64,000 nt of DNA from an uncultured bacterium. GTDB taxonomy: Bacteria; Patescibacteriota; Minisyncoccia; Phycocordibacterales; Phycocordibacteraceae. This document shows positions 3,278-62,754 of the stretch, piece by piece; the first letter of the stretch is position 1; each line of letters begins with the position of its first letter. The notes under the pieces were generated by a model that was given only the letters and a program-made list of their open reading frames with translations, did not search any database and was not told the origin of the DNA. The position numbers and the translations under genes were made by a program. The stretch is taken from contig CALFMK010000001.1 of assembly GCA_937879955.1 (NCBI GenBank), positions 506,356-570,355 on the forward strand, given 5' to 3'.

Positions 3278-3284
3278 GCAACGA

Positions 3285-3314
3285 GAAACCCCGATACGGA
3301 CGTATCGGGGTTTC
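3285..3314. terminator. bidirectional rho-independent terminator hairpin
   Basis: GAAACCCCGATACGGACGTATCGGGGTTTC perfect inverted repeat between convergent genes. Confidence 0.7.
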
Positions 3315-3328
3315 TTCTATAAGACGGC

Positions 3329-5020
3329 TCAATCGCGCGGCAGGTCTACGACCCGGAACACCTCGTCGAGCGATGTCTCTCCGGCGAGCGCCTTCAGCAC
3401 GCCGTCCTGCGCCATGGTGAGGAATCCCTGGCGGCGGACCGACTTCGCGATGTCGCCCTCGCTCGGGTTGTCGCGCAGGAAGGTGCCGAGCTCGTCGTCC
3501 ATGAAAATCGCCTCGTAGAGCCCGGCGCGTCCCTTATACCCGGTCTCGTCCGGGCTCTTCGGGTCCGCAACCCAGAGCGTGTCGAGCGACGCCGGCATGA
3601 GGGACGGGTCCGCGAGGGTAGAGAGGACCTTCTCCATGAGCCGCTTCTGCTCGTCGGTGGCGGGTACCTGCTTCTTCGCGTCAGGGTCGAGCGTGCGCAC
3701 GAGGCGCTGCGCCATCGCGACTGATACTGCGGACGCGAAGGTCTTCGGGTCGACGCCGAGGTCGACGAGGCGGGGGAAGGTACCGGCCGCGTTGTTCGTG
3801 TGGAGCGTCGAGAACACGAAGTGTCCCGTGAGGGCAGCCTGGACCGCGGTCGCGGCAACCTCGCTGTCGCGCACCTCGCCGACCATGATCACGTCAGGGT
3901 CCTGGCGGAGCACGGAGCGGAGCCCGGAGGCGAACGTGTAGTCCGTCCCGTTGGTCTGCGTCTGCACGATGCCGGGAAGGTGATACTCGATCGGGTCCTC
4001 GATTGTCACGATCTTGATCTCGGGCGTATGGATATGGCGGAGGAACGCGTAGAGCGTCGTGGTCTTTCCGGAGCCGGTCGGTCCCGTCACGAGGAGCATG
4101 CCCGTCGGGCGGGTGATCTCGGTAGTGAGACGGTCGAGCAGGTTCTTCCTGATGCCGAGCCGCTCGAAGGTCACGCCGAGCATCGCCGGATCGAGGATGC
4201 GCATCACGAACGATTCGCCGTACGCGCCCGGGATGAGCGAGGTGCGGATCTCCACCTCCGTGTCCCCGGACGGGACCGAGAAGCGCCCGTCCTGCGCGCG
4301 GTCGCGGATGTTGAGCTTCAGGCCCGAGAGGAGCTTGATGCGCGAGGAGAGGAGCTGATACGTATGCGCGTCGAAGGTGTACGCGTCCGTGAGCTGGCCG
4401 TCGAGACGGAGCCTTAGGCGGATGCCCGCCTCTTCGGGCTCCAGGTGGATGTCGGACGCCTTCATGGCGAACGCGGTAGCGAGTATGAAATCGAGGACCC
4501 GCGAGACCTGCGCGCGGGCTCCCGCGACGAGCACCTCGTCGAGCTGTGCCCTGAGCGCGGCGAGGCTCGTGAGCTTTCCGCGAAGCTCCTTGAGCTCGCC
4601 GCCCGAGATCTCGAAGACGCCGGCCTTCGACTCGCTCGCGAACGAGAGCTCGGCGTAGCGGAGGAACGCCCGCTCGAGCGACTTCTTGGAGACGAGGAAG
4701 CGGGAGAGGATATACCCCTGGCTCTCGAGCGCGTGCTCTATCTGCGCGAGCGCGACGCTGCTCGGGTTCCGGAGCGCGATGGAGAGGTGCTTCCCGGTCT
4801 TCTCGAACACCACCATCTCCGCTTCACGCGCCTCCTTCTCGGGAACGAGCCGAAGCGCGTCCACGTTGATCGGCATGATGGTGAGGTCCGTGTACGTGTA
4901 GCCGTACTTCTCCGAGAGGACGCGCGCGAGGTCCTCCTCTTCCTGCGCGCGCACGCTCGCGAGCTTCGCGTCCTCTGCATCGGTATCGAACGGTCCAGGC
5001 ATAGCCTCATGATAGCGCAT
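3329..5020 (-). CDS. pilB: type IV pilus assembly / type II secretion ATPase (PilB/GspE family)
   Basis: GspE N-terminal domain, Walker A GPTGSGKTT, Asp/His boxes; ORF runs to 5206 but upstream part (MRERRLPRAE...) is non-GspE-like and would overlap tsaE, so start placed at MRYHEAMPGP (5020) or MPGP (5002). Confidence 0.8.
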   Translation of the reverse strand: MRYHEAMPGPFDTDAEDAKLASVRAQEEEDLARVLSEKYGYTYTDLTIMPINVDALRLVPEKEAREAEMVVFEKTGKHLSIALRNPSSVALAQIEHALESQGYILSRFLVSKKSLERAFLRYAELSFASESKAGVFEISGGELKELRGKLTSLAALRAQLDEVLVAGARAQVSRVLDFILATAFAMKASDIHLEPEEAGIRLRLRLDGQLTDAYTFDAHTYQLLSSRIKLLSGLKLNIRDRAQDGRFSVPSGDTEVEIRTSLIPGAYGESFVMRILDPAMLGVTFERLGIRKNLLDRLTTEITRPTGMLLVTGPTGSGKTTTLYAFLRHIHTPEIKIVTIEDPIEYHLPGIVQTQTNGTDYTFASGLRSVLRQDPDVIMVGEVRDSEVAATAVQAALTGHFVFSTLHTNNAAGTFPRLVDLGVDPKTFASAVSVAMAQRLVRTLDPDAKKQVPATDEQKRLMEKVLSTLADPSLMPASLDTLWVADPKSPDETGYKGRAGLYEAIFMDDELGTFLRDNPSEGDIAKSVRRQGFLTMAQDGVLKALAGETSLDEVFRVVDLPRD

Positions 5021-5059
5021 CAGGAGCGCGTTGCCGCCCCGCTTGGTACAATTCTCCCC

Positions 5060-13060: not shown

Positions 13061-13072
13061 GCCGAAGCGAAG

Positions 13073-13100
13073 AAAAGCCCCGGATTATTCCGGGGCTTTT
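13073..13100. terminator. rho-independent terminator
   Basis: AAAAGCCCCGGATTATTCCGGGGCTTTT hairpin plus T tract. Confidence 0.75.
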
Positions 13101-13136
13101 CTCTTAGATGCATGGGCGGGTGATATCATCATCCGC

Positions 13137-13664
13137 ATGAAAGGCACGCGAGCGTTCACCCTCATCGAGCTCCTCGTCGTCATCGCGATCATCGGCATCC
13201 TCTCGAGCGTCGTGCTCGCATCGCTGAACACGGCTCGCATGAAGGCGCGCAATACGCAGCGCCTCGCTGCGGTGACGGAGCTGCGGAAGGCCGCACAGCT
13301 CGGATTCAACGATCTTGGATCGTATCCGTTGGTGACGACGTGGAAATGCGTCACGCAGTCCTGCTACGGCACCTGGAACTATCCGGCGGACGCGTCGGTG
13401 GATGCATTCTTCTCGCCTTATATGGGGAAGCCCGAGGATCCTGCGTCCGGCAGGTCCGGAATCGGCGGCATCCTGTACTCGAACTGGCCGGGCGGCACGT
13501 CGTCCGCGGGGCCGAATGCGGGCGTCTATTTCCCGTCAGGCTTCTACTTTACGTACATGCTCGAGCTCTCAGGCTCCACCGTCACTGACGCCATGTGCGG
13601 GCCCGGGAAGGTCTGGACCTTTGCAGCTAATACCTACTTCCAGTGCCTGCTAAGGCTCGAGTAA
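13137..13664 (+). CDS. type IV pilin / pseudopilin-like protein
   Basis: prepilin leader plus FTLIELLVVIAIIGILSSVVLASL N-methylation/TM segment. Confidence 0.75.
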   Translation: MKGTRAFTLIELLVVIAIIGILSSVVLASLNTARMKARNTQRLAAVTELRKAAQLGFNDLGSYPLVTTWKCVTQSCYGTWNYPADASVDAFFSPYMGKPEDPASGRSGIGGILYSNWPGGTSSAGPNAGVYFPSGFYFTYMLELSGSTVTDAMCGPGKVWTFAANTYFQCLLRLE

Positions 13665-13686
13665 TCTCGTGCCGTATACTTCGAAC

Positions 13687-14229
13687 ATGGAATCATCGCC
13701 TTCGCCTCGCGGCTTCACCCTCATCGAGCTCCTCGTCGTGATCGCGATCATCGGCATCCTCTCGAGCGTCGTGCTCGCGTCGCTCAGTACTGCGCGCACG
13801 AAGGGTCAGATCGCGGCGGCGAAGGCCGACATGAGCACGTTCGTGAAGGCGGTTACAATCGCGCAGGGCGAGGGCAGCAAGCGTCTCAGTACCATGTCTG
13901 CCGAGGGCGGCTCTGGCACGTCGAACTGCAGTCAGTGCGCGTGTACGGCGGCGACCGACCTTAGGAATATCTCATCCACGAGCCAGTGCTACATCAATTG
14001 GATCGGCGTCCTGACAGGCGTGCAGGCGAATACCGGTGGCCTCGTGACGAACCTCACGTCCATGACACGCGATCCCTGGGGAAGCCCGTATCTCGTGGAT
14101 GAGAATCAGGGAGAGGCGGGGAACTGTTCCTCATTCGACTCGCTTCGGTCTGCGGGTCCGGACGGCATCAAGAGCACCAGTGACGATGTCGTCGGTCCTC
14201 AGATACCACTCTCGCCGACGTGCCCGTAG
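13687..14229 (+). CDS. type IV pilin / pseudopilin-like protein
   Basis: GFTLIELLVVIAIIGILSSVVLASL prepilin N-terminus; 4 Cys in C-terminal region; alternative start 13669. Confidence 0.7.
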   Translation: MESSPSPRGFTLIELLVVIAIIGILSSVVLASLSTARTKGQIAAAKADMSTFVKAVTIAQGEGSKRLSTMSAEGGSGTSNCSQCACTAATDLRNISSTSQCYINWIGVLTGVQANTGGLVTNLTSMTRDPWGSPYLVDENQGEAGNCSSFDSLRSAGPDGIKSTSDDVVGPQIPLSPTCP

Positions 14230-14983: not shown

Positions 14984-15026
14984 TATAAGAGTATCTATCT
15001 ATAATTGCTTTTCTGGTCATCACTAA

Positions 15027-15056
15027 AGCAAAAGCGCCCGCACGGGCGCTTTTGCT
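15027..15056. terminator. terminator hairpin
   Basis: GCAAAAGCGCCCGCACGGGCGCTTTTGC. Confidence 0.7.
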
Positions 15057-15062
15057 TATGTG

Positions 15063-17080: not shown

Positions 17081-17575
17081 ATGATTAGGCGAGTGAACGA
17101 ATCGTCTCTCAACAGCCGGGGCTTCACCCTCATCGAGCTCCTCGTCGTGATCGCGATCATCGGCATCCTCTCGAGCGTCGTGCTCGCGTCCTTGAACAAC
17201 GCTCGCGCGAAGGCTCGTGACGCGGAGCGGAAGTCCGACATGCGTGCGGTGCTGAACGCGCTCGACCTCTACGCGTTCGACAATGGCGGGAAGTACCCGA
17301 TCGCGGCGAACCCGGGTACCGGCTGCGCAGGCGCTCGTCCAGGGTACTGTCTCGGTGACAGCAACGTGGTCGCGGCGCTCGTCCCGCAGTATCTCCCGGA
17401 GATGCCGCACGATCCGCTGTATGCGAACACGACGAACGACTATCTGTATCAGCAACTGAACCAGAGTGTGTACATCCTCCTCGCGAAGAGCGAGAAGCTC
17501 AACAGCTGGTGCGTGCCGCCATCGTCAGCGATGTACGTAGGGCATGCCTGGTTGACCTCCTATCCCTCCTGCTAG
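17081..17575 (+). CDS. type IV pilin / pseudopilin-like protein
   Basis: GFTLIELLVVIAIIGILSSVVLASL prepilin N-terminus; Cys pairs in C-terminal region. Confidence 0.75.
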   Translation: MIRRVNESSLNSRGFTLIELLVVIAIIGILSSVVLASLNNARAKARDAERKSDMRAVLNALDLYAFDNGGKYPIAANPGTGCAGARPGYCLGDSNVVAALVPQYLPEMPHDPLYANTTNDYLYQQLNQSVYILLAKSEKLNSWCVPPSSAMYVGHAWLTSYPSC

Positions 17576-51855: not shown

Positions 51856-53844
51856 ATGACTACAACAAACAACACGATCGCAAAGTTTGCGGCTGTCGTT
51901 GCTATGCTCGGTCTCGTTGCTTCTTCGGCTTTCGCTTTTGCTCCAGCAGCAAAGGCAGCTGATTCTGCAACTGACCTCCAGGCACAGATCAACGCACTTC
52001 TCGCACAGATCGCAGCGCTCCAGGGTAACACCGGTACGACTGCAGCGGTCTCGTTCACGCAGGACCTCACCCTCGGCTCTTCCGGAGCTCAGGTTACGGC
52101 TCTTCAGAACTGGCTTATCAGCAAGGGCTTCACTATCGCAGCTGGCGCGACCGGATACTTCGGCGCACAGACGCAGGCAGCTCTCGCTAAGTACCAGGCT
52201 TCGGCAGGTATCACCCCAGCTTCCGGTTACTTCGGCCCGATCACTCGCGCTAAGGTAAACGCAGCTGCAGGCACCGGCACCGGAACTGGCACTGGCACGG
52301 GTACCGGCACCGGTACTTCGACTGGCGGCCTTTCTGGCGGCGAGGCAAACCTCACCGACTACGATCTCAAGCGCGAGGAGTCTTCCGGCGCTGAGGGAGA
52401 GCAGGAGGTACAGGTTGCTACGGCTGAGTTCGACGTAGAGGATGGCGACGTTCGCGTCGAGCGCCTCGAGGTCGAGTTCCAGGCTGCTTCCACGGCAAAC
52501 GGTGTTAGCACCAAGCCTTGGGACTTCATCGACAACGTATCTGTCTGGGCAGACGGCAAGAAGATCGACGACATGGATGTCGACGGTCGCGCTGACTGGG
52601 ACGAGAACAACGATGATTCCGACCACTCCGGTTCGACTGCTGACTACTACAGCCTTTCCTTCACGGGTCTGGACTACGTAGTTGAGGAGGGCGACACTGC
52701 AGAGATCACCATCGCAGTTGATGTTTCTGACAACATCGACAGCGACGACCTCGCACAGTCCTTCGTCGTTACCATCCCAACCGATGGTATCCGCGCTGTC
52801 GATGCAGAGGGTATCCAGCAGTACACCGGTAAGGTGTCTGATGCGATCACCTTCAGCTTCGACTCTGAGGAGAACGGCGACCTCTCGGTCCGCGAGAACA
52901 GCGACAACCCAGATGCAGCTAACCTCAAGGTTGAGGATGACAAGACTTCGGAGGAGTACTCCGTATTCAAGTTCGACATCCGCAACACTGACGATGCTGA
53001 CTCGCTCCTCACCGAGCTCAAGATTGGTACGACCATCTCTGGTTCCACGACGACTGACCGTGTCATCCGCAAGGCTACTCTCGTAGTAGACGGCGATGAG
53101 TACGATGCAGACATCGCTACGACCGACGATGGTAACCTCACCTTCGATGACCTCGATGTTGAGCTCGCTGGCGACAGCACCACTGAGTTCGAGCTCCTCG
53201 TTGAGTTCAACCGCCAGGCTGGCAACTTCGCTTCTGGCGACACTGTTGTCTTCTCTGTCGACCCAGCTGATATTGACGCTGAGGGCCTCGAGAGCGGTGA
53301 CGACGTTGCTGATATCAGCGGCGGTGCTGACTCTGAGACTCACACCCTCTCTCTCACCGGCTTCGCTGTTGAGGCAGTATCCACCAGCCAGTCTTCGGAC
53401 AACGCTGACACTGCTTCTGCATCGACTGGTACCTTCACGATCAAGTTCGACGTGACGGCTGATGAGGATGATGCTCTCTACATCGACAACGTTGCTGCTA
53501 ACGCTTCGACTACGGCTTCTACGACGGCTGGCGCAAGCTACCGCGTGTTCCGCAACGGTGCTGCTGCTTCCCTCGCATTCACGTCTGAGAACGCTGTTCT
53601 CACTTCGACGGCGAAGATGGAGGGTGGTGCATACCGTGTCGACGCTGGCGACACCGAGACCTTCACCCTCACGGTGACGATCGATCCAGCACAGTCCGGA
53701 CTCTTCGCAGTCGAGCTCGATGCTGTCAACTACGCAACGTCTGCAGCCCTCGCTACCTCCGGTAACGCGGCTGACAACCTGACGCTCGATGTTGATGGAA
53801 ACAACTCTGACTTCGAGACTGATCCAACTAACATCAACAACTAA
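51856..53844 (+). CDS. large secreted surface protein (peptidoglycan-binding domain + GT-repeat linker + acidic beta-rich region), S-layer-like candidate
   Basis: signal peptide; PG-binding-like repeat (LTLGSSGAQVTALQNWLISKGF...GYFGAQTQAALAKYQ); (GT)8 linker; D/E/T/S-rich 450 aa remainder; codon usage shifted to A/T-ending codons versus neighbours. Confidence 0.7.
   Translation: MTTTNNTIAKFAAVVAMLGLVASSAFAFAPAAKAADSATDLQAQINALLAQIAALQGNTGTTAAVSFTQDLTLGSSGAQVTALQNWLISKGFTIAAGATGYFGAQTQAALAKYQASAGITPASGYFGPITRAKVNAAAGTGTGTGTGTGTGTGTSTGGLSGGEANLTDYDLKREESSGAEGEQEVQVATAEFDVEDGDVRVERLEVEFQAASTANGVSTKPWDFIDNVSVWADGKKIDDMDVDGRADWDENNDDSDHSGSTADYYSLSFTGLDYVVEEGDTAEITIAVDVSDNIDSDDLAQSFVVTIPTDGIRAVDAEGIQQYTGKVSDAITFSFDSEENGDLSVRENSDNPDAANLKVEDDKTSEEYSVFKFDIRNTDDADSLLTELKIGTTISGSTTTDRVIRKATLVVDGDEYDADIATTDDGNLTFDDLDVELAGDSTTEFELLVEFNRQAGNFASGDTVVFSVDPADIDAEGLESGDDVADISGGADSETHTLSLTGFAVEAVSTSQSSDNADTASASTGTFTIKFDVTADEDDALYIDNVAANASTTASTTAGASYRVFRNGAAASLAFTSENAVLTSTAKMEGGAYRVDAGDTETFTLTVTIDPAQSGLFAVELDAVNYATSAALATSGNAADNLTLDVDGNNSDFETDPTNINN
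52270..52317 (+). repeat. hexanucleotide tandem repeat (GGYACN)8 encoding (Gly-Thr)8
   Basis: ggcaccggcaccggaactggcactggcacgggtaccggcaccggtact. Confidence 0.8.
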
Positions 53845-54018
53845 TAGTCATTCGAGATACGTCTCGATAGCTACTAGCTAGATGTTTGCAAAACCCCCGC
53901 GGTACGCCGCGGGGGTTTTGCTTTATCTCGCAGGGAAGGGAAGCCTTCTCCTGCGGAAACGGGACTTGGCCCTCATGTCCGAGTCTCGTTTCCGCAGCTG
54001 GCTTGATAGAATGGATGA

Positions 54019-54588
54019 ATGCTCACACCTAAGGCCGCGTATCGGCTCATCCTCGTTCAAGACCTTGCTTTCATCGTCTTGAGCATCGTCGTTGCGATAG
54101 CTCTGGTGAAGACCGGAGTACTCGAGAGTGTGCTCACAATGACGCGCGAGCTCGACTACCTTGGAAGCTTCCTCGCTGGACTCTTCTTCACGTCTATATT
54201 CACGACAGCGCCTGCCATCGTGACGCTCGGAGAGATCGCGCAGCTGAATGGCATCTGGACAACAGCATTGTTCGGTGCGCTCGGCGCCGTGGCGGGGGAC
54301 CTCGTCATCTTCCGCTTCATAAAGGATGGTCTCAGCGAGCATGTTGCCCAGTTGCGAAGCGCGCCTTCGCCGAAGGTGTGCCTCGAGCAGTGCCTGAAGA
54401 ACAGGCGCATGTTCCGCTGGATAACCTTCGTCGCAGGAGGTCTCGTCATAGCGTCGCCACTGCCGGACGAGCTCGGGGTGAGCATGCTCGGCATGTCGAA
54501 GATGCGGCTCGCGATGTTCGTCCCCATCTCGCTCGCGTTCAATTTCCTCGGGATCCTCGCGATCGGGCTCGTGGCATCCGCCCTCTAG
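54019..54588 (+). CDS. hypothetical integral membrane protein
   Basis: 189 aa, about 5 TM helices. Confidence 0.55.
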   Translation: MLTPKAAYRLILVQDLAFIVLSIVVAIALVKTGVLESVLTMTRELDYLGSFLAGLFFTSIFTTAPAIVTLGEIAQLNGIWTTALFGALGAVAGDLVIFRFIKDGLSEHVAQLRSAPSPKVCLEQCLKNRRMFRWITFVAGGLVIASPLPDELGVSMLGMSKMRLAMFVPISLAFNFLGILAIGLVASAL

Positions 54589-54930: not shown

Positions 54931-55428
54931 ATGGCAATCACCAAAGCAAAGAAGCAGGAAGTGACGGAGAAGATCGCAGACGCCGTAAAGGATGCTGCAT
55001 CGATCGTCTTCGTGCATTTCAAGGGCCTCACGGTCGGAGACACGAGCGCGATGCGCAAGAGCCTCCGCGAGGGAGGCGTCGGCTACTACGTGGCCAAGAA
55101 GACGCTCATCCGCCGCGCGCTCGCTGACAAGGGATACGAGGGCACCATGCCTGAGCTCCCTGGCGAGATCGCGATCGCATGGAGCAAGGACGACGCGACC
55201 CAGGCTGCGCGCGACGTGTTCGAGCACGGCAAGAAGCACAAGGGAGCGCTCGCAATCATGGGCGGTATCTTCGAAGGGAAGTTCACGGATGCAGCCGGCA
55301 TGAACGCCGTCGCGCTCATCCCATCGGTACCGGTCCTCCGTGGCATGTTCGTCAACGTGATCAACAGCCCTATCCAGGGTCTCGTTATCGCGCTCGACAA
55401 GATCGCCGAGAAGAAGGCTGCTGCATAA
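54931..55428 (+). CDS. rplJ: 50S ribosomal protein L10
   Basis: 165 aa; MAITKAKKQEVTEKIADAVKDAASIVFVHFKGLTV typical of L10. Confidence 0.9.
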   Translation: MAITKAKKQEVTEKIADAVKDAASIVFVHFKGLTVGDTSAMRKSLREGGVGYYVAKKTLIRRALADKGYEGTMPELPGEIAIAWSKDDATQAARDVFEHGKKHKGALAIMGGIFEGKFTDAAGMNAVALIPSVPVLRGMFVNVINSPIQGLVIALDKIAEKKAAA

Positions 55429-55464: not shown

Positions 55465-55938
55465 ATGGCTGATGAAGAGATCAAGCAGGAGGAGGCGGTC
55501 GAGGAGACTGCAGCCCCTGTAGCAGAGGCAGCAGCTCCGGCTGCTCCAGAGGCAGAGGTAGAGGTTCCTGAGAAGTTCAAGAAGATCGTCGCTTCGATCG
55601 AGGAGATGTCCGTCCTCGAGCTCTCCGAGCTCGTGAAGGTCTTCGAGAAGAAGTTCGGGGTGTCGGCAGCGGCAGTCGCCGTTGCTGGTCCTGCGGCAGG
55701 CGGCGCAGCGGGCGGCGAGGATGCGAAGAGCACCTTCACCGTCGAGCTCTCCGACGCAGGTGCGAACAAGATCCAGGTGATCAAGGTCGTGAAGGAGGCC
55801 CTCGGCCTCGGCCTCAAGGAGGCAAAGGACCTCGTCGATGGCGCTCCTTCCGTCGTGAAGGAAAACCTCGGCAAGGACGATGCAGACGCCCTCAAGGCGA
55901 AGATCGAGGAGGCAGGAGGCAAGGTTACCCTCAAGTAA
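55465..55938 (+). CDS. rplL: 50S ribosomal protein L7/L12 (extended Ala/Glu-rich N-terminus)
   Basis: C-terminal domain [56 protein letters not shown] is canonical L7/L12. Confidence 0.9.
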
Positions 55939-55953
55939 CACCCCCCTGTTCCA

Positions 55954-55990
55954 AGCGAAAGGCATCCGCGAAAGCGGGTGCCTTTCGCTT
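55954..55990. repeat. 37-bp terminator hairpin, copy 1 of direct repeat flanking Fic gene
   Basis: AGCGAAAGGCATCCGCGAAAGCGGGTGCCTTTCGCTT; 36/37 identical to 57221..57257. Confidence 0.8.
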
Positions 55991-56079
55991 TTAAAGATAG
56001 TTGCGATAGGTTGACGACATATTAACTAAATACTAAGATAGTATCTATTAGATTAATAGATGCCAACTAACATATCTCC

Positions 56080-57207
56080 ATGCTGATCGGCAAAAACATA
56101 AAGCAAAAAGAGGGTTTCTCTGCGTTCGTTCCTGAGCCTTTCCCGCCCGTGGGACTGGGTGATTTTTCGCATGAGCTCCTCATTAAGGCGGCAGAAGCGG
56201 ACCGTCTGGTGGGGAAGCTCGATGGTGTAACGCACACGCTTCCGGATCTCGACTTCTTCCTCAAGATGTTCGTGACGAAGGACGCTACGTCGTCAGCGCA
56301 GATCGAAGGGACGAAGGCGACGATCATTGATGCTATCGAGATGGATGCTGGTATCGCTACGACGCAGACCGATGCGGATGACATTCTCTACTACGTGAAA
56401 GCGCTTCATTATGGAAGCGAGAGGCTCGCCAATTTCCCGCTATCGCTCAGGCTTATACGGGAGATACACGGACAGCTCATGACAGGAGCGCGCTCCTCGC
56501 ATTTTGCCGACCCAGGCTCCTTTCGGAGGACGCAGAATTGGATTGGAGGAACGTCGCCATCGAACGCGCTCTTCGTGCCGCCTCCGGTTCAGGAGATGAT
56601 GCGGGCGCTCGGCGACCTCGAGGCATTCCTTCACGACGAGATGCAGACGCTCCCAATAATGCATATCGCCCTCACTCACGCGCAGTTCGAAACGATCCAC
56701 CCGTTTCTCGATGGTAACGGGCGTACCGGGCGCTTGCTTATAACCATGATGCTCTGTCATCGTGAACTGCTTGAGCGTCCGGTGCTCTTCCTTTCTTCCT
56801 ATTTCAAGAAGCATCAGAAGACCTACTACACGCGCCTGAACGGATACCACGAAGGGGACGTGGAGCCCTGGGTGGACTTCTTCCTCGATGGCGTAATAGA
56901 GACTGCGAATAATTCGATCGCGATCTCTAAGGAAGTCAGAAAAATCAGAGACGAAGACATGGCGAAGATCCTCAAGCTCGCGAAGCGGGAATCGGAGAGC
57001 GGCGTGCTCGTGCTCTCGAAGCTATTCGGAAATCCTATCGTAACGACCCGTACGATAATGGAGTGGACCAATTTCTCCCGAGCGGGAGCACAAAAGCTCA
57101 TCGAACGCTTCATCGTGCTCGGCATCTTGCAGGCCCGGGAGGAGAAGGGGACCTACGATCGCACGTACGTGTACAAGACCTATCTCGACGTGTTCACGAA
57201 GTCGTAA
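56080..57207 (+). CDS. fic: Fic/Doc family protein (putative AMPylator) with N-terminal inhibitory helix motif and C-terminal wHTH
   Basis: Fic motif HPFLDGNGRTGRLL; N-terminal SSAQIEGT (S/TxxxE(G/N) inhibitory motif); lower GC than flanks; AT-rich promoter region 55991..56079. Confidence 0.9.
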   Translation: MLIGKNIKQKEGFSAFVPEPFPPVGLGDFSHELLIKAAEADRLVGKLDGVTHTLPDLDFFLKMFVTKDATSSAQIEGTKATIIDAIEMDAGIATTQTDADDILYYVKALHYGSERLANFPLSLRLIREIHGQLMTGARSSHFADPGSFRRTQNWIGGTSPSNALFVPPPVQEMMRALGDLEAFLHDEMQTLPIMHIALTHAQFETIHPFLDGNGRTGRLLITMMLCHRELLERPVLFLSSYFKKHQKTYYTRLNGYHEGDVEPWVDFFLDGVIETANNSIAISKEVRKIRDEDMAKILKLAKRESESGVLVLSKLFGNPIVTTRTIMEWTNFSRAGAQKLIERFIVLGILQAREEKGTYDRTYVYKTYLDVFTKS

Positions 57208-57220
57208 TCAGAGTCCGCTG

Positions 57221-57257
57221 AGCGAAAGGCACCCGCGAAAGCGGGTGCCTTTCGCTT
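57221..57257. repeat. 37-bp terminator hairpin, copy 2 of direct repeat flanking Fic gene
   Basis: AGCGAAAGGCACCCGCGAAAGCGGGTGCCTTTCGCTT. Confidence 0.8.
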
Positions 57258-57311: not shown

Positions 57312-57890
57312 ATGGATCCGCTTGCCCGACTCTTTGGTTCTCCTGCGCGCGTAAAGCTCCTGCGCCTCTTCCTGTTCAACGATGAGCTCACGTTCCTCGC
57401 GGCAGATGCCGCGTTCCGCGCGCGCCTCTCGAAGGATGCGACCCGCAAGGAGCTGACCCAGCTCGTGGCCGCAGGCATCGTCCGCAAGAAGACGGGGAAG
57501 GGTCCGCTCGGCTACACGGCCGACAAGCGCTTCGCGCACTTCGAGGCGCTCAAGGTGTTCCTGCGCACCACGACCGACGTGAGCGATACGGCGATCGTGA
57601 CCTCGCTCAAGAAGGCCGGCACCGTCCGCCTCGTGGTGCTCTCGGGCCTCTTCACCGGCGCGATCGAGTCGAAGGTGGACGTTCTCATTGTGGGGGACCG
57701 GATGGAGGAGAAGCCGCTCGCGTCTGCGATCCACGTGCTCGAGGCCGAGCTCGGCCGCGAGCTCCGCTACGCCTGCTTCTCGACCGAGCAGTTCAAGTAC
57801 CGTCTCGGCGTCTACGACCGCCTCCTCAGGGATGTCTTCGATTATCCGAACCGGATCATCATCGACAAGATCGGGCTCGCAGCGAAGTAA
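57312..57890 (+). CDS. hypothetical protein
   Basis: about 192 aa from MDPLARLFG (ORF begins 57270); no family recognised. Confidence 0.5.
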   Translation: MDPLARLFGSPARVKLLRLFLFNDELTFLAADAAFRARLSKDATRKELTQLVAAGIVRKKTGKGPLGYTADKRFAHFEALKVFLRTTTDVSDTAIVTSLKKAGTVRLVVLSGLFTGAIESKVDVLIVGDRMEEKPLASAIHVLEAELGRELRYACFSTEQFKYRLGVYDRLLRDVFDYPNRIIIDKIGLAAK

Positions 57891-58697: not shown

Positions 58698-58783
58698 GTC
58701 TCACTGGCAGAAGGCAAAAGCCCCGCATCTGCGGGGCTTTTGCTATACCGGACCCCTCGGAGGAGGGGAGCCCGGTCCGTAAT

Positions 58784-58812: not shown

Positions 58813-59594
58813 CCTCTTACGTGTTAAAGACCAAGAAATTAGTAACCAAACGGAGCGGATAAGCGAAAGCCGTAAGGCTCTCGACACCGCCCCGCACGGG
58901 GCTTTTTTCTTGAAAGGGCACGCAGGTCGTTGACAGACGAATATGCAAATAGGTAATCAACGCCGCTAGGCGTGGACGTTCGCGTCCATGGCTGGCGGAT
59001 TGAATATTGCAGAATCACACAATCGTTAGAAAGTGGTGTTCAGGTTTCCGCACAGGAGACATGAAGGGTGCACGGTGGATGCCTAGGCTTGCGACAGCGA
59101 TGAAGGACGCGACTAATCAGCGAAATGCTTCGGGGAGGCGATTTGTAGCCTTTGATCCGGAGGTGTCCGAATGGGGAAACCCAACCAGCAATGGTTACCT
59201 CTCAATATTTTGTAGAGGAGCGAACCCAGGGAAGTGAAACATCTCAGTACCTGGAGGAATAGAAAACAACAACGAGTTGCGTTCCGTCTATTCGATGCTT
59301 CGAGTAGATGGAACGCGACTCTCGTGATTCCCTAAGTAGCGGCGAGCGAAACGGGAATAGCCCAAACCTGATACTTCGGTATCAGGGGTTGTAGGGCGGA
59401 AGCGCCGTACTTGATACGGCACAAGTTACAAAAGTTCTACATAGCAGAAGAAGCTGGAAAGCTTCGCCCCAGAGGGTAATGGCCCCGTATGCGAAATGTA
59501 AAACCCTTGTGAGCTTCCGATCCTGAGTAGTTCGAGACACGAATAGCTCGGATGAATCTGCCGGAACTAACCGGTAAGGCTAAATATGTCGCAG

Positions 59595-59640
<46 letters not shown>

Positions 59641-61079
59641 GAGAGGGGAGTGAAATAGAACTGAAACCGTGTACTTACAAAGGGTTAGGGTGGGCTCCGG
59701 TCCATCCTAGCGTGCCTATTGAAGAATGAGCCTGCGAGTTTATGTATGTCGCTTCGGCTAAGCCCGTTACGGGGCGGAGCCACAGGGAAACCGAGTGTTA
59801 ATAGCGCGTCCGTGTCATACATAAGACCCGAAGCCAGGTGAGCTTGCCATGAGCAGGGTGAAGTCTGTCGAAAGACAGATGGAGGCCCGAACCCGTATGT
59901 CGTACAACGCATTGGGATGACTTGTGGTAAGGAGTGAAAAGCTAATCGAACCTGGTAATAGCTGGTTCTCTCCGAAACATCTTTTGGGATGGCGTCGCGT
60001 GGTCCCCTTGGGGGTAGAGCACTGGAAGGGATGAACAGGGAGAAATCTCGTCATTCCTATCAAACTCCGAATACCAAGGATTATGAGCGCGGCAGTTAGA
60101 CGGTGGGGGCGAAGCTCCACACGTCGAAGGGGGAAGAGCCCTGGATCGCCAGTTAAGGTCCCTAAATCTACGCTAAGTACAACTTAAGGAAGTGAGGATT
60201 CATTGACAATGAGGATGTTGGCTTAGAAGCAGCCACCATTTAAAGAAAGCGTAACAGCTCACTCATCGAGAGTCCTTGCGCCGAAGATGATCGGGGTTAA
60301 GCGTAGTACCGAAACTGCGGGAATGGAGATCCTCCGGGATCTCCATTCGGTAGGAGAGCGTTCCGTTCTGCTGTGAAGCTAAAGGGGTGACCCATAGTGG
60401 AGCGTACGGAAGTGAGAATGCAGGCACAAGTAACCACAATGCGGGTGAGAACCCCGCACGTCGAAAGAACGAGGTTTCCTCAGCTATGACGATCAACTGA
60501 GGGTTAGTCGGGCCTTAGGGGATGGCGAAAGCCGCACCTGATGGACACAGGGTTAATATTCCCTGACCGATCATATGTGCGATGGAGTGACGGATTGCTG
60601 TATCTATGGCCCATTATTGGATTTGGGTTGGTGCCGTGAGGAGGCTTGGTAGGTAAATCCGCCAGGCGCTACTCCGAGCGGAAAAACAATGTTCTCCTTC
60701 GGGGGAGCAGAGCATAGAGAGCGCGGTTCCAAGAAAAACTTCTAAGCTTCAGCATATGACGACCGTACCGGAAACCGACACAGGTGTTCAGGTCGAGTAG
60801 ACTAAGACGAACGAGTGAGAGGTCCTCAAGGAACTCGGCAAAAAAGCGGCCGTAAGTTAGCGATAAGGCCTGCCCCTAGCAATAGGGGCCGCAGCGAAAG
60901 ATTTTCTGCCAACTGTTTACCAAAAACACAGCTCCCTGCGAACTCGTAAGAGGATGTATAGGGGGTGACGCCTGACCAATGCCGGAAGGTCAAGCAGGGA
61001 CGGTACATTGATTTCGATTGATGTGCTAGGCCCTATAAGCCCCGGTGAATGTCGGCGATAACTATAATCGTCCTAAGGT

Positions 61080-61275
61080 CCTGCATCTGAGCGATCGGAT
61101 GCAGGACGGATTGGGGCGGTTATAGGAGACCGTAAACAGTTCTGAGAAGATTACGTCATCAAAAGCTACCTCTTCAGACCGGAAGGTCTGTTGAATCCGC
61201 GACTCACATGAGAGGCCATACGTCGCGCCCCTAGCAATAGGGTGAAGATATGGTCCTACGTTAAAGGAATAGTAG
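61080..61275 (+). mobile_element. putative group I intron (about 196 nt, no ORF) in 23S domain IV
   Basis: interrupts conserved CCUAAGGU|AGCG; 5' exon ends in U, insert ends in G, contains GAAGATATGGTCC resembling group I P7/P9.0 consensus AAGAUAUAGUCC. Confidence 0.5.
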
Positions 61276-61936
61276 AGCGTAATTCCTTGTCTGGTAAGTT
61301 CAGACGTGCACGAATGGCGTAATGAGTGGAAAACTGTCTCGAGGACTTGCTCGGTGAAAATGCAATACCGGTGAAGATGCCGGTTACCTGTAGTTAGACG
61401 AAAAGACCCCAGGAGCTTTACTACAGCTTGGTATTGGGGTTGTGTGTCGTATGCGTAGCATAGGTGGGAGACTTTGAAGCGTACCTCTTGGGGTACGTGG
61501 AGTCGCCAGTGAAATACCACTCTTACGATGTGCAACTTCTAACCCGCGTAAGAACTACGTGGGGACAGTGCCTGGCGGGTAGTTTTGGTGGGGCGCTATC
61601 CTCCTAAAAAGTAACGGAGGAGTCTATTAAGGTTGGCTAGGCGCGAATGGAAACCGTGCCGATAGTGTAATGGCACAAGCCAGCTTAACTGTAAGGGGTA
61701 CATCCCGCACAGATGCGAAAGCAGAGCATAGTGAACCGATGGTCCGCCTTAGATGCGGCCAGAGATTAACGGATAAAAGTTACCCTGGGGATAACAGGCT
61801 AGTTCCGCCCAAGCGTCCATAGCGACGGCGGAGTTCGGCACCTCGATGTCGGCTCACCTTAGCGCGGGGCTGGAGAAGGTCCCAAGCGTATGGCTGTTCG
61901 CCATTTAAAAAGGTACGCGAGCTGGGTTCAAACCGT

Positions 61937-62249
61937 GTGGGGCTCGAATCTTCGGATTCGTTCCTCACACCGTTTGAATCCCTTCGAGATTTCTGTTGTC
62001 AGAATTCGAAAAAGTGCGAAAGAATGAGAGTGAATGTCTTTTCGTCTTGAAACTAAGATAGAACCAACCACGACACGGCGGCGTGTTCCTGAAAGGGGAC
62101 ACGGGAAGCTGACTGGTATCGGTGGAACCCTACTCGAAAGAGGGGCGACACCGAGGGAAGCCGAAAGGCGCCCGTAGAGACTGAACGTCAGACACCCGGA
62201 AGGGTGATATTACAGTCCGATCCTCCGAGTAATCGGAGCAAACGAAATG
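61937..62249 (+). mobile_element. putative group I intron (about 313 nt, no ORF) in 23S domain V at the I-CreI/I-CeuI-type site
   Basis: interrupts conserved AACGU|CGUGAGACAG; ends in G; contains GATATTACAGTCCGATCC resembling AAGAUAUAGUCGGACC of group I introns. Confidence 0.5.
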
Positions 62250-62643
62250 CGTGAGACAGGTTGGTCTCCTATCTACTACAGGCGTTGATTCTTGAGGAGA
62301 CTTGCCCCTAGTACGAGAGGACCGGGGTGAACTGACCTCTGGTCTACGAGCTGTCACGCCAGTGGCATCGCTCGGTAGCTATGTCGGGATGTGATAACTG
62401 CTGAAAGCATATAAGCGGGAAGCACGCTCCAAGATTAGGAATCGTTATGAGGCTCCTAGAAGATGACTAGGTTGATAGGCTTTAGATGGAAGCGCAGTAA
62501 TGCGTTGAGTCGAGAAGTACTAATATGCCCAGACTTCTGTGCGGAACTCTGTATGTCACATCTGATGATGCGTGACTGCAATATTGAATGGAGATCCTAT
62601 TTGCATATTCGTCCGTCTGCGAAGACGGAGAAAACGTGCGTAT

Positions 62644-62754
62644 GATGCTGGTGATTTATCGGGAGGGCCACACCCGTTCTCATTCCGAACACGGCAGTTA
62701 AGCCTCCTTGAGCCGATGGTACTCGTAAGGGGAGAGTAGGTTGTCGCCAGCATC
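62644..62754 (+). rRNA. rrf: 5S ribosomal RNA
   Basis: helix I GATGCTGGTGA/TCGCCAGCATC, loop CCGAACACGGCAGTTAAGC, GGTACTCGTAAGGGGAGAGTAGG; about 100 nt after 23S. Confidence 0.85.

Follow-up and report, generated by a model that had tools for sequence, protein, structure and literature searches.

How does a lone gene with the features of a toxin come to lie between two nearly identical hairpins, directly behind a ribosomal protein operon, in a bacterium that belongs to the candidate phyla radiation (CPR)? The question is raised by a stretch of 64,000 nucleotides (the window; contig CALFMK010000001.1 of assembly GCA_937879955.1, positions 506,356 to 570,355) from an uncultured member of the Phycocordibacteraceae, in which a Fic-family gene follows rplJ and rplL. 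Close relatives of this genome are annotated Paceibacterota. Judged from the comparison with related contigs set out below, the Fic gene is inserted between two copies of the rplL terminator-type hairpin, the target having been duplicated. The best explanation, with a probability of roughly three in four, is a single, host-mediated insertion of a SoFic-type unit that was not site-specific and that left a long target duplication. The inserted unit comprises 1.22 kb (55991-57210), a leader and one SoFic-type gene, and entered the 106-nt spacer between rplL and the next gene. The duplicated target would measure at least 47 bp, made up of 10 nt of spacer and the 37-nt rplL hairpin. No mobility gene, recombinase or terminal repeats were found in the 1.22-kb insert.

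The two hairpins, AGCGAAAGGCATCCGCGAAAGCGGGTGCCTTTCGCTT (copy 1, 55954-55990) and AGCGAAAGGCACCCGCGAAAGCGGGTGCCTTTCGCTT (copy 2, 57221-57257), agree at 36 of 37 positions, and both their coordinates and their identity are as reported in the initial annotation. Each folds into a 16-bp stem with a GAAA loop, the folding energy being -33.4 kcal/mol (z -7.1) for copy 1 and -39.7 kcal/mol (z -7.2) for copy 2. The sole mismatch, a T/C difference at position 12, preserves the pairing, as a U-G wobble replaces a C-G pair. Beyond the pair, no match with at most three mismatches occurs in the 64-kb window or in 100 shuffles of it, and the 37-nt repeat was absent elsewhere among 131 collected loci. The window, 64 kb of a 591-kb contig, gives no sign that the hairpin is a common terminator present at many loci: it holds 2 copies, and the approximately 25 other long perfect-stem hairpins at its gene ends each have their own sequence, only the rplL hairpin being duplicated. 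These gene-end hairpins (2355-63357; e.g., 3284-3315, 13071-13102, 15026-15057, 53888-53921 and 58714-58743) have stems of 11-16 bp with A-rich 5′ arms and T-rich 3′ arms; a separate U-tract is usually absent and a consensus terminator scan misses them. No Rfam family matched the hairpin or the leader.

Relatives with an empty site identify the gene as the newcomer. Contig L001, found by an exact look-up of the window RplL, is 93-97% identical in DNA and encodes an identical RplL. It has the rplL stop codon, one hairpin, GATTCGTCAAGG... and the 192-aa gene that also follows in the window, with 106 nt between rplL and the 192-aa gene and no fic; the sequence 3′ of hairpin copy 2 in the window is identical to that 3′ of the single hairpin of L001. 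Eighteen further contigs were obtained via the 90% cluster of the downstream mechanosensitive (MS) channel protein. Fifteen of them span the site, and all 15 are empty, with one orthologous hairpin and the same downstream gene, so that together with L001 the site-spanning contigs without Fic number 16. At the anchor sequences the 15 outgroup contigs show 75-87% identity, and they have at least four distinct hairpin/spacer alleles among them. Since all outgroups are empty with a single hairpin, the empty site is the ancestral state; since the empty relatives have one hairpin, fic is an insertion and the second hairpin a target duplication, as had been proposed from the window.

The extent of the duplication is visible in L002, a contig from another sample that encodes a Fic protein 98% identical to that of the window. 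It is occupied, and its left junction is the same. The direct repeat of L002 measures 47 nt and consists of 10 nt of the rplL 3′ spacer (CCCTGTTCCA) plus the hairpin (L002:3725-3771 vs. 4990-5036, 91% identical). At the 3′ junction the window reads TAA-TCAGAGT-CCGCTG-hairpin and L002 reads TAG-T-CCGTATTCCA-hairpin, the right copy of the 10-mer spacer being partly decayed in the window. Because the repeat of L002 extends past the hairpin and relatives have an orthologous hairpin, the hairpin is the resident rplL hairpin and the second copy the duplicated target. This speaks against the alternative of the initial annotation, in which a mobile unit brings a hairpin of its own. That the window strain and L002 received the insertion independently was considered and rejected: the left junctions are identical, the right junctions share TCCG and the divergence of fic equals that of the flanks. 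An assembly artefact was also rejected, as both verified events (this one and a second one at rmuC, below) recur in independent samples and assemblers with point differences. Among the relatives the stem pairing of the orthologous rplL hairpin is kept by compensatory changes and its 4-nt loop varies, being GAAA in L029, L031, L033, L034 and L043-46, TTTC in L030 and TTTT in L001 and L039-42. This flipping of the loop suggests recurrent small inversions inside the palindrome.

The insertion is old. By DNA identity the strains group as ((window, L001), L002). In fic, 63 synonymous and 9 non-synonymous codon differences separate the window from L002 over 376 codons; synonymous differences in the flanks number 25/158 in rplL, 39/193 in the 192-aa gene and 42/226 in the MS-channel gene. 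The synonymous divergence of fic is about that of the flanks, so the gene has diverged in step with them, and the few non-synonymous changes point to purifying selection. These counts indicate one old insertion in the common ancestor of the window strain and L002, followed by vertical inheritance under purifying selection. Of the two other strains L001 is the nearer to the window (rplL 10/158), its flanks resembling those of the window consistently more than those of L002, yet it has no fic. It is nested between occupied strains, empty and scarless, which points to secondary loss, and a precise loss by recombination between both repeats seems the likeliest course. Both hairpin copies of L002 carry the compensatory pair change G8->A / C29->T, and all four copies in the window and L002 form perfect or near-perfect stems. 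The shared compensatory change suggests that both copies are under structural constraint and evolve in concert or in parallel.

The cargo encodes a protein of 375 aa with the Pfam domains Fic_N (3.4e-17) and Fic (2.1e-19). Its catalytic motif, HPFLDGNGRTGR at residues 207-218 (H207-PFLDGNGRTGR), fits HxFx(D/E)GNGRxxR. An N-terminal inhibitory motif, SAQIEG (S72-A-Q-I-E76-G77), fits (S/T)xxxE(G/N), and S72, E76 and G77 are invariant in 27 homologues. The PADLOC hidden Markov model for SoFic matches residues 13-373 of 375 with an E value of 5.7e-105. The best solved-structure matches are SoFic of Shewanella oneidensis (PDB 3eqx/3zcn/9tch; E ~1e-29 with phmmer, residues 39-374 vs. 38-364), with the C-terminal winged-helix domain included. 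The window protein is a member of the SoFic family but, with an NCBIfam equivalog score under the cut-off, no equivalog of the enzyme from S. oneidensis. In S. oneidensis, SoFic AMPylates EF-Tu and also binds the promoter of its own gene, in the 100 bp next to the ATG (bioRxiv 10.64898/2026.07.09.737422). Toxicity and a role in anti-phage defence are described for Sofic, and its E. coli version has a 47-aa downstream antitoxin, AS1 (PMC12249575). In groundwater genomes SoFic is reported to rank second in prevalence among defence families, with no bias towards mobile elements or defence islands (PMC12259885). By analogy with these homologues, and given the PADLOC match, the defence or toxin role suggested from the start is plausible for the window protein.

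An antitoxin partner was not found in the insert, which has 89 nt of leader upstream of the gene and 13 nt of tail downstream. The 13 nt between the fic stop codon and hairpin 2 leave no room for an AS1-like gene. The proposal that the neighbour at 57312-57890 might be the partner did not hold: this 192-aa gene stands directly 3′ of the single hairpin in every empty-site relative, without fic, and by its conserved position it is a core host gene and not an antitoxin partner. The Fic protein has an intramolecular inhibitory motif of its own. The 192-aa product has weak family matches to DUF7342 and ArsR and matches the PADLOC candidate-defence model PDC-M05A with an E value of 1.5e-17.

The leader belongs to the unit. 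It contains the promoter-like sequence TTGACG-17-TAAGAT (-35 at 56011-56016, -10 at 56034-56039), so that the AT-rich leader with promoter and the gene with its catalytic and SxxxEG motifs, as first read from the letters, are both supported by the promoter scan and Pfam. Two 31-nt operator-like inverted repeats lie 41 nt apart (TAGTT 55998-56002...AACTA 56024-56028 and TAGTA 56039-56043...AACTA 56065-56069). In an alignment of 10 leaders from different genomes, whose Fic proteins are ~60-98% identical to that of the window, the half-sites, the -35 and the -10 are invariant, with one inverted repeat overlapping the -35 and the other following the -10. The leader travels with the gene, and autoregulation by binding of Fic to the putative operators is predicted by analogy with S. 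oneidensis SoFic. The conserved unit extends from ~87-90 nt before the ATG to the stop codon; terminal repeats or a conserved 3′ tail common to the compared Fic units were not found. In composition the leader (GC 0.29) and fic (0.547) lie below the whole window (0.616). The lower GC content of fic noted earlier is real yet modest, since GC at third codon positions (0.70) falls within one standard deviation of the window open reading frames (ORFs; 0.78 +/- 0.11), which is consistent with long residence.

Fic relatives with 70-77% identity occur in CPR classes, in Nitrospirota, in an actinobacterium and in an archaeon, in many different contexts. Distant homologues annotated MloA sit in streptococcal prophages. 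Others, in L069, L073 and L145, are part of type I restriction-modification operons or adjoin them, one being the neighbour of hsdS on Synechocystis pSYSX; L069 and L073 have as flanking repeat the 3′ end of the gene upstream. In one metagenome-assembled genome a Fic unit stands directly between gyrB and secE-nusG-rplK (L006, the same as L003; 3779-7444) with no detectable duplication.

The signature seen at rplL recurs at other Fic loci. A script compared 700 nt on each side of Fic at 89 loci from genome and metagenome scans; the genome-contig scan gave 23 Fic loci, and the metagenome scan, made with generic motifs, gave mostly relatives of ~40% identity. Direct repeats of 30-171 nt with 84-100% identity flank Fic at 17 of the 89 loci, each with a different sequence, compared with 5 of 113 size-matched neighbouring genes (Fisher p = 0.0012). 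Four of these five control genes are of toxin or defence type, and no housekeeping gene of the window scored in the screen. Many of the repeats are fragments of flanking genes (the rmuC 3′ end, gene starts) or parts of tRNAs, and a strong hairpin lies inside the repeat at only about a third of the repeat-flanked loci. L008 (21-25 nt, AT-rich) and L021 (imperfect, three copies) were not counted as firm events, and no clear duplication was found at L003/L006 (gyrB-fic-secE) and L004/L007. From the diversity of sites and repeats, the insertion is recurrent and not site-specific, a pattern that is frequent and not universal; the word 'site-specific' in the initial annotation has to be given up. 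The four repeat-flanked control genes of toxin or defence type are a RhuM+Fic gene (L022:4615-5595, 46 nt), a reverse transcriptase (L050:1072-2076, 121 nt), an AAA_21/AbiEii-like ATPase (L024:4698-5912, 31 nt) and HipA (L021:1964-3220, 30 nt). In L021 one repeat of 30-34 nt occurs three times (~1862, 3629 and 5154) and separates HipA from Fic in the manner of a cassette array.

A second event has an empty site of its own. In L012 (Collierbacteria) two 95-nt repeats of 100% identity enclose fic within the 3′ end of rmuC, and the insertion swapped the last residues of RmuC for a few codons of the insert (330 aa vs. 328). On both sides contig L131 aligns collinearly (89% and 94.6% identity), and it has the segment once, without fic. 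L127 was examined as an empty site for the same event and rejected, having a different left neighbour. Several samples yielded the occupied allele, on 22 contigs in total, and the rmuC context is the same in each. As the identical Fic is seen only there, there is no evidence of recent transposition; a recent donor was not found, the next relative being 70% identical.

A mechanism that accommodates these observations can be outlined. A horizontally acquired fragment with promoter and gene would be captured at a break whose ends overlap by tens of bases. The overlap may be due to a pair of opposite-strand nicks close together or to a replication template switch re-entering upstream, and fill-in would then duplicate it, all of this by host enzymes and not by a recombinase of the element. 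Insertions that spare both neighbours would persist. Here one hairpin copy would close the rplL transcript and the other the fic transcript, shielding the downstream gene, so that each transcription unit keeps a terminator and the promoter of the next gene is left untouched. Exit would follow by recombination between the repeats, which removes the unit precisely, as it probably did in L001. By homology, SoFic-type proteins are expected to be dimeric class II Fic AMP-transferases that are kept off by an N-terminal inhibitory helix and that bind their own promoter through the C-terminal winged helix. Once activated, Fic would AMPylate EF-Tu and stop translation, giving phage defence of the abortive-infection type. 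Cleavage of a cruciform was set aside as the source of the duplication; it predicts a duplication of 37 nt, equal to the palindrome, and the repeat of L002 measures 47 nt.

Several points weigh against this account. A donor close enough to reveal microhomology at the junctions was not found, the next Fic relatives being only 70-77% identical, and without a close donor in the collections break fill-in, template switching and homology-anchored illegitimate recombination are not told apart. The loop of the L001 hairpin is TTTT and that of all four hairpins in the occupied strains GAAA or GGAA, so that simple recombination between the repeats needs an extra change in the loop. The hairpins have no classical U-tract (copy 1 is followed by 4 U and copy 2 by 2 U) and a consensus terminator scan called neither, the terminator function being inferred. 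About 80% of the Fic loci have no flanking repeat, so either repeats decay or other entry routes exist; none of 7 plasmid-borne homologues taken from finished sequences has one. Local repeated elements could account for some of the 17 repeats, in place of target duplication, and empty sites are verified for two events only. The NCBIfam SoFic equivalog model NF046030 scores 140.7 bits against a cut-off of 550, and anti-phage activity of the CPR Fic is a prediction from homologues.

Among the other explanations the one that fares best, though still an unlikely one, is entry anchored by homology. DNA of a relative would carry fic beside a sequence resembling the rplL terminator, and the repeat would be the overlap of the anchor, produced either when one homologous crossover is paired with one illegitimate join (homology-facilitated illegitimate recombination) or when a circle with a host fragment integrates in Campbell fashion. 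Such a route yields host-derived direct repeats of any length without an enzyme encoded by the element, and the repeats would permit circular excision and re-entry into empty alleles by homology. Three type IV pilin-like proteins encoded in the window are compatible with the uptake of DNA. However, an earlier donor with fic beside the same host sequence is needed, which only pushes the origin back; the repeats are host-specific in every event, distant phyla included, and no such donor was found.

Two further proposals assign an active part to the unit itself. The broader one, a doubtful prospect, is that SoFic-type units, and perhaps HipA, AbiEii-like ATPases and defence reverse transcriptases, are mobile elements that need no transposase, the long-staggered duplication being an active property of the unit. 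For example, the Fic/winged-helix dimer, bound to its operator, could then mark out and shield the fragment and favour its capture at stalled forks or hairpins. If true, the flanking repeats would be a device for excision and re-entry, and defence genes would have a life cycle without phage, plasmid or transposon. In the narrower and still less likely form, the operator-bound dimer, or its effect on host DNA transactions, sets the left end of the insert and promotes staggered capture. Flanking repeats are enriched around the SoFic-type family, the inserts are trimmed tightly to operator-leader and ORF in many independent events (leaders 56-130 nt, tails 1-45 nt), and the left junction precedes the first operator half-site by 7-8 nt in both the window and L027. 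The tight trimming could also be a deletion bias of streamlined genomes, and Fic proteins are not known to process DNA. The same pattern is found at restriction-modification genes (PMC2853133) and at HipA, reverse-transcriptase and AbiEii-like genes, which argues for a general host route plus selection.

A cassette that is directed to hairpins and brings its own copy, as for integron attC sites, Xer/dif sites or IS200/IS605-like insertion sequences, with a recombinase in trans joining it to the resident hairpin, is highly improbable. The window repeat is indeed a perfect palindrome with a 16-bp stem, and strong hairpins occur in a few other repeats (L067, with a 16-bp stem and a TTTT loop; L116, L085 and L065). 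Against this, the hairpin is the single-copy, orthologous, putative terminator of rplL in all 16 empty contigs, the L002 repeat runs 10 nt beyond it, and in L012 the duplicated 95 nt are coding sequence of rmuC. Most other repeats are pieces of coding sequence or of tRNAs and have neither a hairpin nor a common motif, and the insert has neither a recombinase nor conserved ends. Least credible of all is that fic and both hairpins are ancestral, the site never having been a target and all relatives with one hairpin being products of deletion: one such deletion is inferred for L001, but with every sampled outgroup empty (at least four hairpin/spacer alleles, 75-87% identity) many independent clean losses would be required, the 47-nt duplication around a foreign-looking gene would be left unexplained, and close Fic relatives are scattered over CPR classes, Nitrospirota, Actinobacteria and an archaeon.

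The preferred reading, a single host-mediated insertion with long target duplication, has a precedent in other genes. Insertion with long target duplication is described for restriction-modification systems in a 2000 paper, as cited (reference 37) by Furuta, Abe & Kobayashi (2010, Nucleic Acids Research, PMC2853133). Furuta et al. detected such insertions by genome comparison with a threshold of >30 bp and by a screen for flanking repeats; the mechanism was not established (PMC2853133). They asked for absence of the insert in a relative with both flanks aligned, a repeat of >30 bp that is not a multicopy element of the genome, an insert of <20 kb, no other mobile element, and restriction (R) and modification (M) genes. 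At the Fic loci, empty relatives with a single repeat exist (L001 plus 15 contigs for the window; L131 for L012), the duplications are variable and longer than 30 bp (37 nt in the window, 47 nt in L002, 95 nt in L012 and 30-171 nt elsewhere), and the insert, at 1.22 kb with leader and fic only, is below 20 kb and has no mobile-element genes. R and M genes are lacking, the cargo being a Fic gene. Both kinds of insertion are small selfish or defence units that lack transposase and integrase and are missing from a flank-aligned relative. In both, the repeats exceed 30 bp, are single in the empty genome, differ in length and sequence between events, include gene ends or parts of tRNAs in some cases and offer a route for excision or amplification. 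In contrast to the restriction-modification insertions, the cargo here is one Fic AMP-transferase gene with operator and promoter, and the hosts are mostly uncultured CPR bacteria. As the cargo is not a restriction-modification system, a cause that lies in DNA-cutting cargo does not transfer. No link of SoFic or other Fic genes with insertions that duplicate a long target turned up in open-access text.

Among other known systems, SoFic as defined in PADLOC and DefenseFinder (S. oneidensis SoFic/MloA, E. coli EcSofic) shares with the unit a size of ~375 aa; the AT-rich region upstream of the window gene has operator-like repeats <100 bp from the ATG, in line with the promoter binding reported for SoFic. 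The unit differs from solved SoFic in the low alignable similarity (E ~1e-29), in falling below the NCBIfam cut-off and in having no AS1-like small gene. With the class I modules FicT/FicA (VbhT/VbhA) and Doc/Phd it shares a toxin-like enzyme of Fic fold, growth-inhibitory if unrestrained, in a small mobile module. Unlike these it has no separate antitoxin gene; inhibition is predicted to be intramolecular (class II) and the 192-aa neighbour is a core host gene. No adjacent co-inherited antitoxin gene of the kind that marks a type II toxin-antitoxin system (class I FicTA) is present. Integron cassettes and pdif/Xer modules also hold a single gene between two similar palindromic sites. Here, in contrast to integrons, pdif/Xer modules and insertion sequences, the palindrome is the putative rplL terminator of the host, the duplication is longer, integrase, attC and dif are absent and non-palindromic repeats occur in other events. 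The insert contains no recombinase or transposase, its ends are unconserved, and the repeats are long, variable and host-derived.

Table 1. Coordinates of the features at the rplL-fic locus (window positions).
Feature	Position	Strand	Remarks
rplJ	54931-55428		Host gene before rplL
rplL (ribosomal protein L7/L12)	55465..55938	+	Upstream host gene; Pfam Ribosomal_L12 on the identical protein in L001
10-nt spacer CCCTGTTCCA	55944..55953	+	Left-hand part, left copy, of the original target duplication, on the basis of the 47-nt repeat in L002
Hairpin copy 1, resident rplL terminator-type	55954..55990	+	Stem 55954-55969/55974-55989, loop GAAA 55970-55973; UUUU run follows since the insertion
AT-rich leader, 89 nt	55991..56079	+	Travels with fic
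SoFic-type class II Fic gene, 375 aa	56080..57207	+	Pfam, PADLOC and PDB matches
13-nt tail TCAGAGTCCGCTG	57208..57220	+	Last ~7 nt are the decayed right copy of the 10-nt spacer
Hairpin copy 2, duplicated target	57221..57257	+	Stem 57221-57236/57241-57256, loop GAAA; at the fic terminator position, before the promoter region of the next gene
192-aa conserved host gene	57312..57890	+	ArsR-like winged-helix N-terminus; outside the insertion

Other parts of the window deserve mention. Upstream of the ribosomal genes, a 662-aa peptidoglycan-binding surface protein (51856-53844) is hypervariable between close strains, 52368-54160 being unalignable, and a 189-aa VTT-like membrane protein (54019-54588) is 71-73% identical among close strains compared with 93-99% for neighbour genes. 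Three type IV pilin-like paralogues with an N-terminal methylation motif (ORFs 13137-13664, 13669-14229 and 17081-17575) lie in a tRNA-rich stretch. A 144-nt repeat family (13149-13292, 13708-13851 and 17117-17260; 73-82% identical) corresponds to their 5′ ends. The pilin-like genes are compatible with a DNA-uptake or pilus apparatus. The 23S rRNA (59050-62544) spans 3495 nt compared with a 2925-nt model and thus contains ~570 nt of insertions; the only sizeable ORF within it (61062-61535, minus strand) has no Pfam match. A 5S rRNA follows at 62647-62752, and no 16S rRNA lies nearby.

What is new at this locus is an insertion with long target duplication, verified by an empty site, of a single-gene SoFic unit beside a ribosomal operon in a CPR bacterium, with about one-fifth of the family loci sharing the signature. 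It bears on how single-gene defence systems spread into genomes that are nearly without recognisable mobile elements, such as those of the CPR. Two verified events, together with repeats at about one-fifth of the loci, suggest that long target duplication may be a general entry route for selfish defence genes. The mechanism is testable with a unit of 1.2 kb. Host-derived repeats of 30-170 nt around a lone defence gene provide a signature for tracing acquisitions in metagenomes. Such an entry route can be seamless even beside an essential ribosomal operon, the duplicated target giving a putative terminator to both the old and the new transcription unit.

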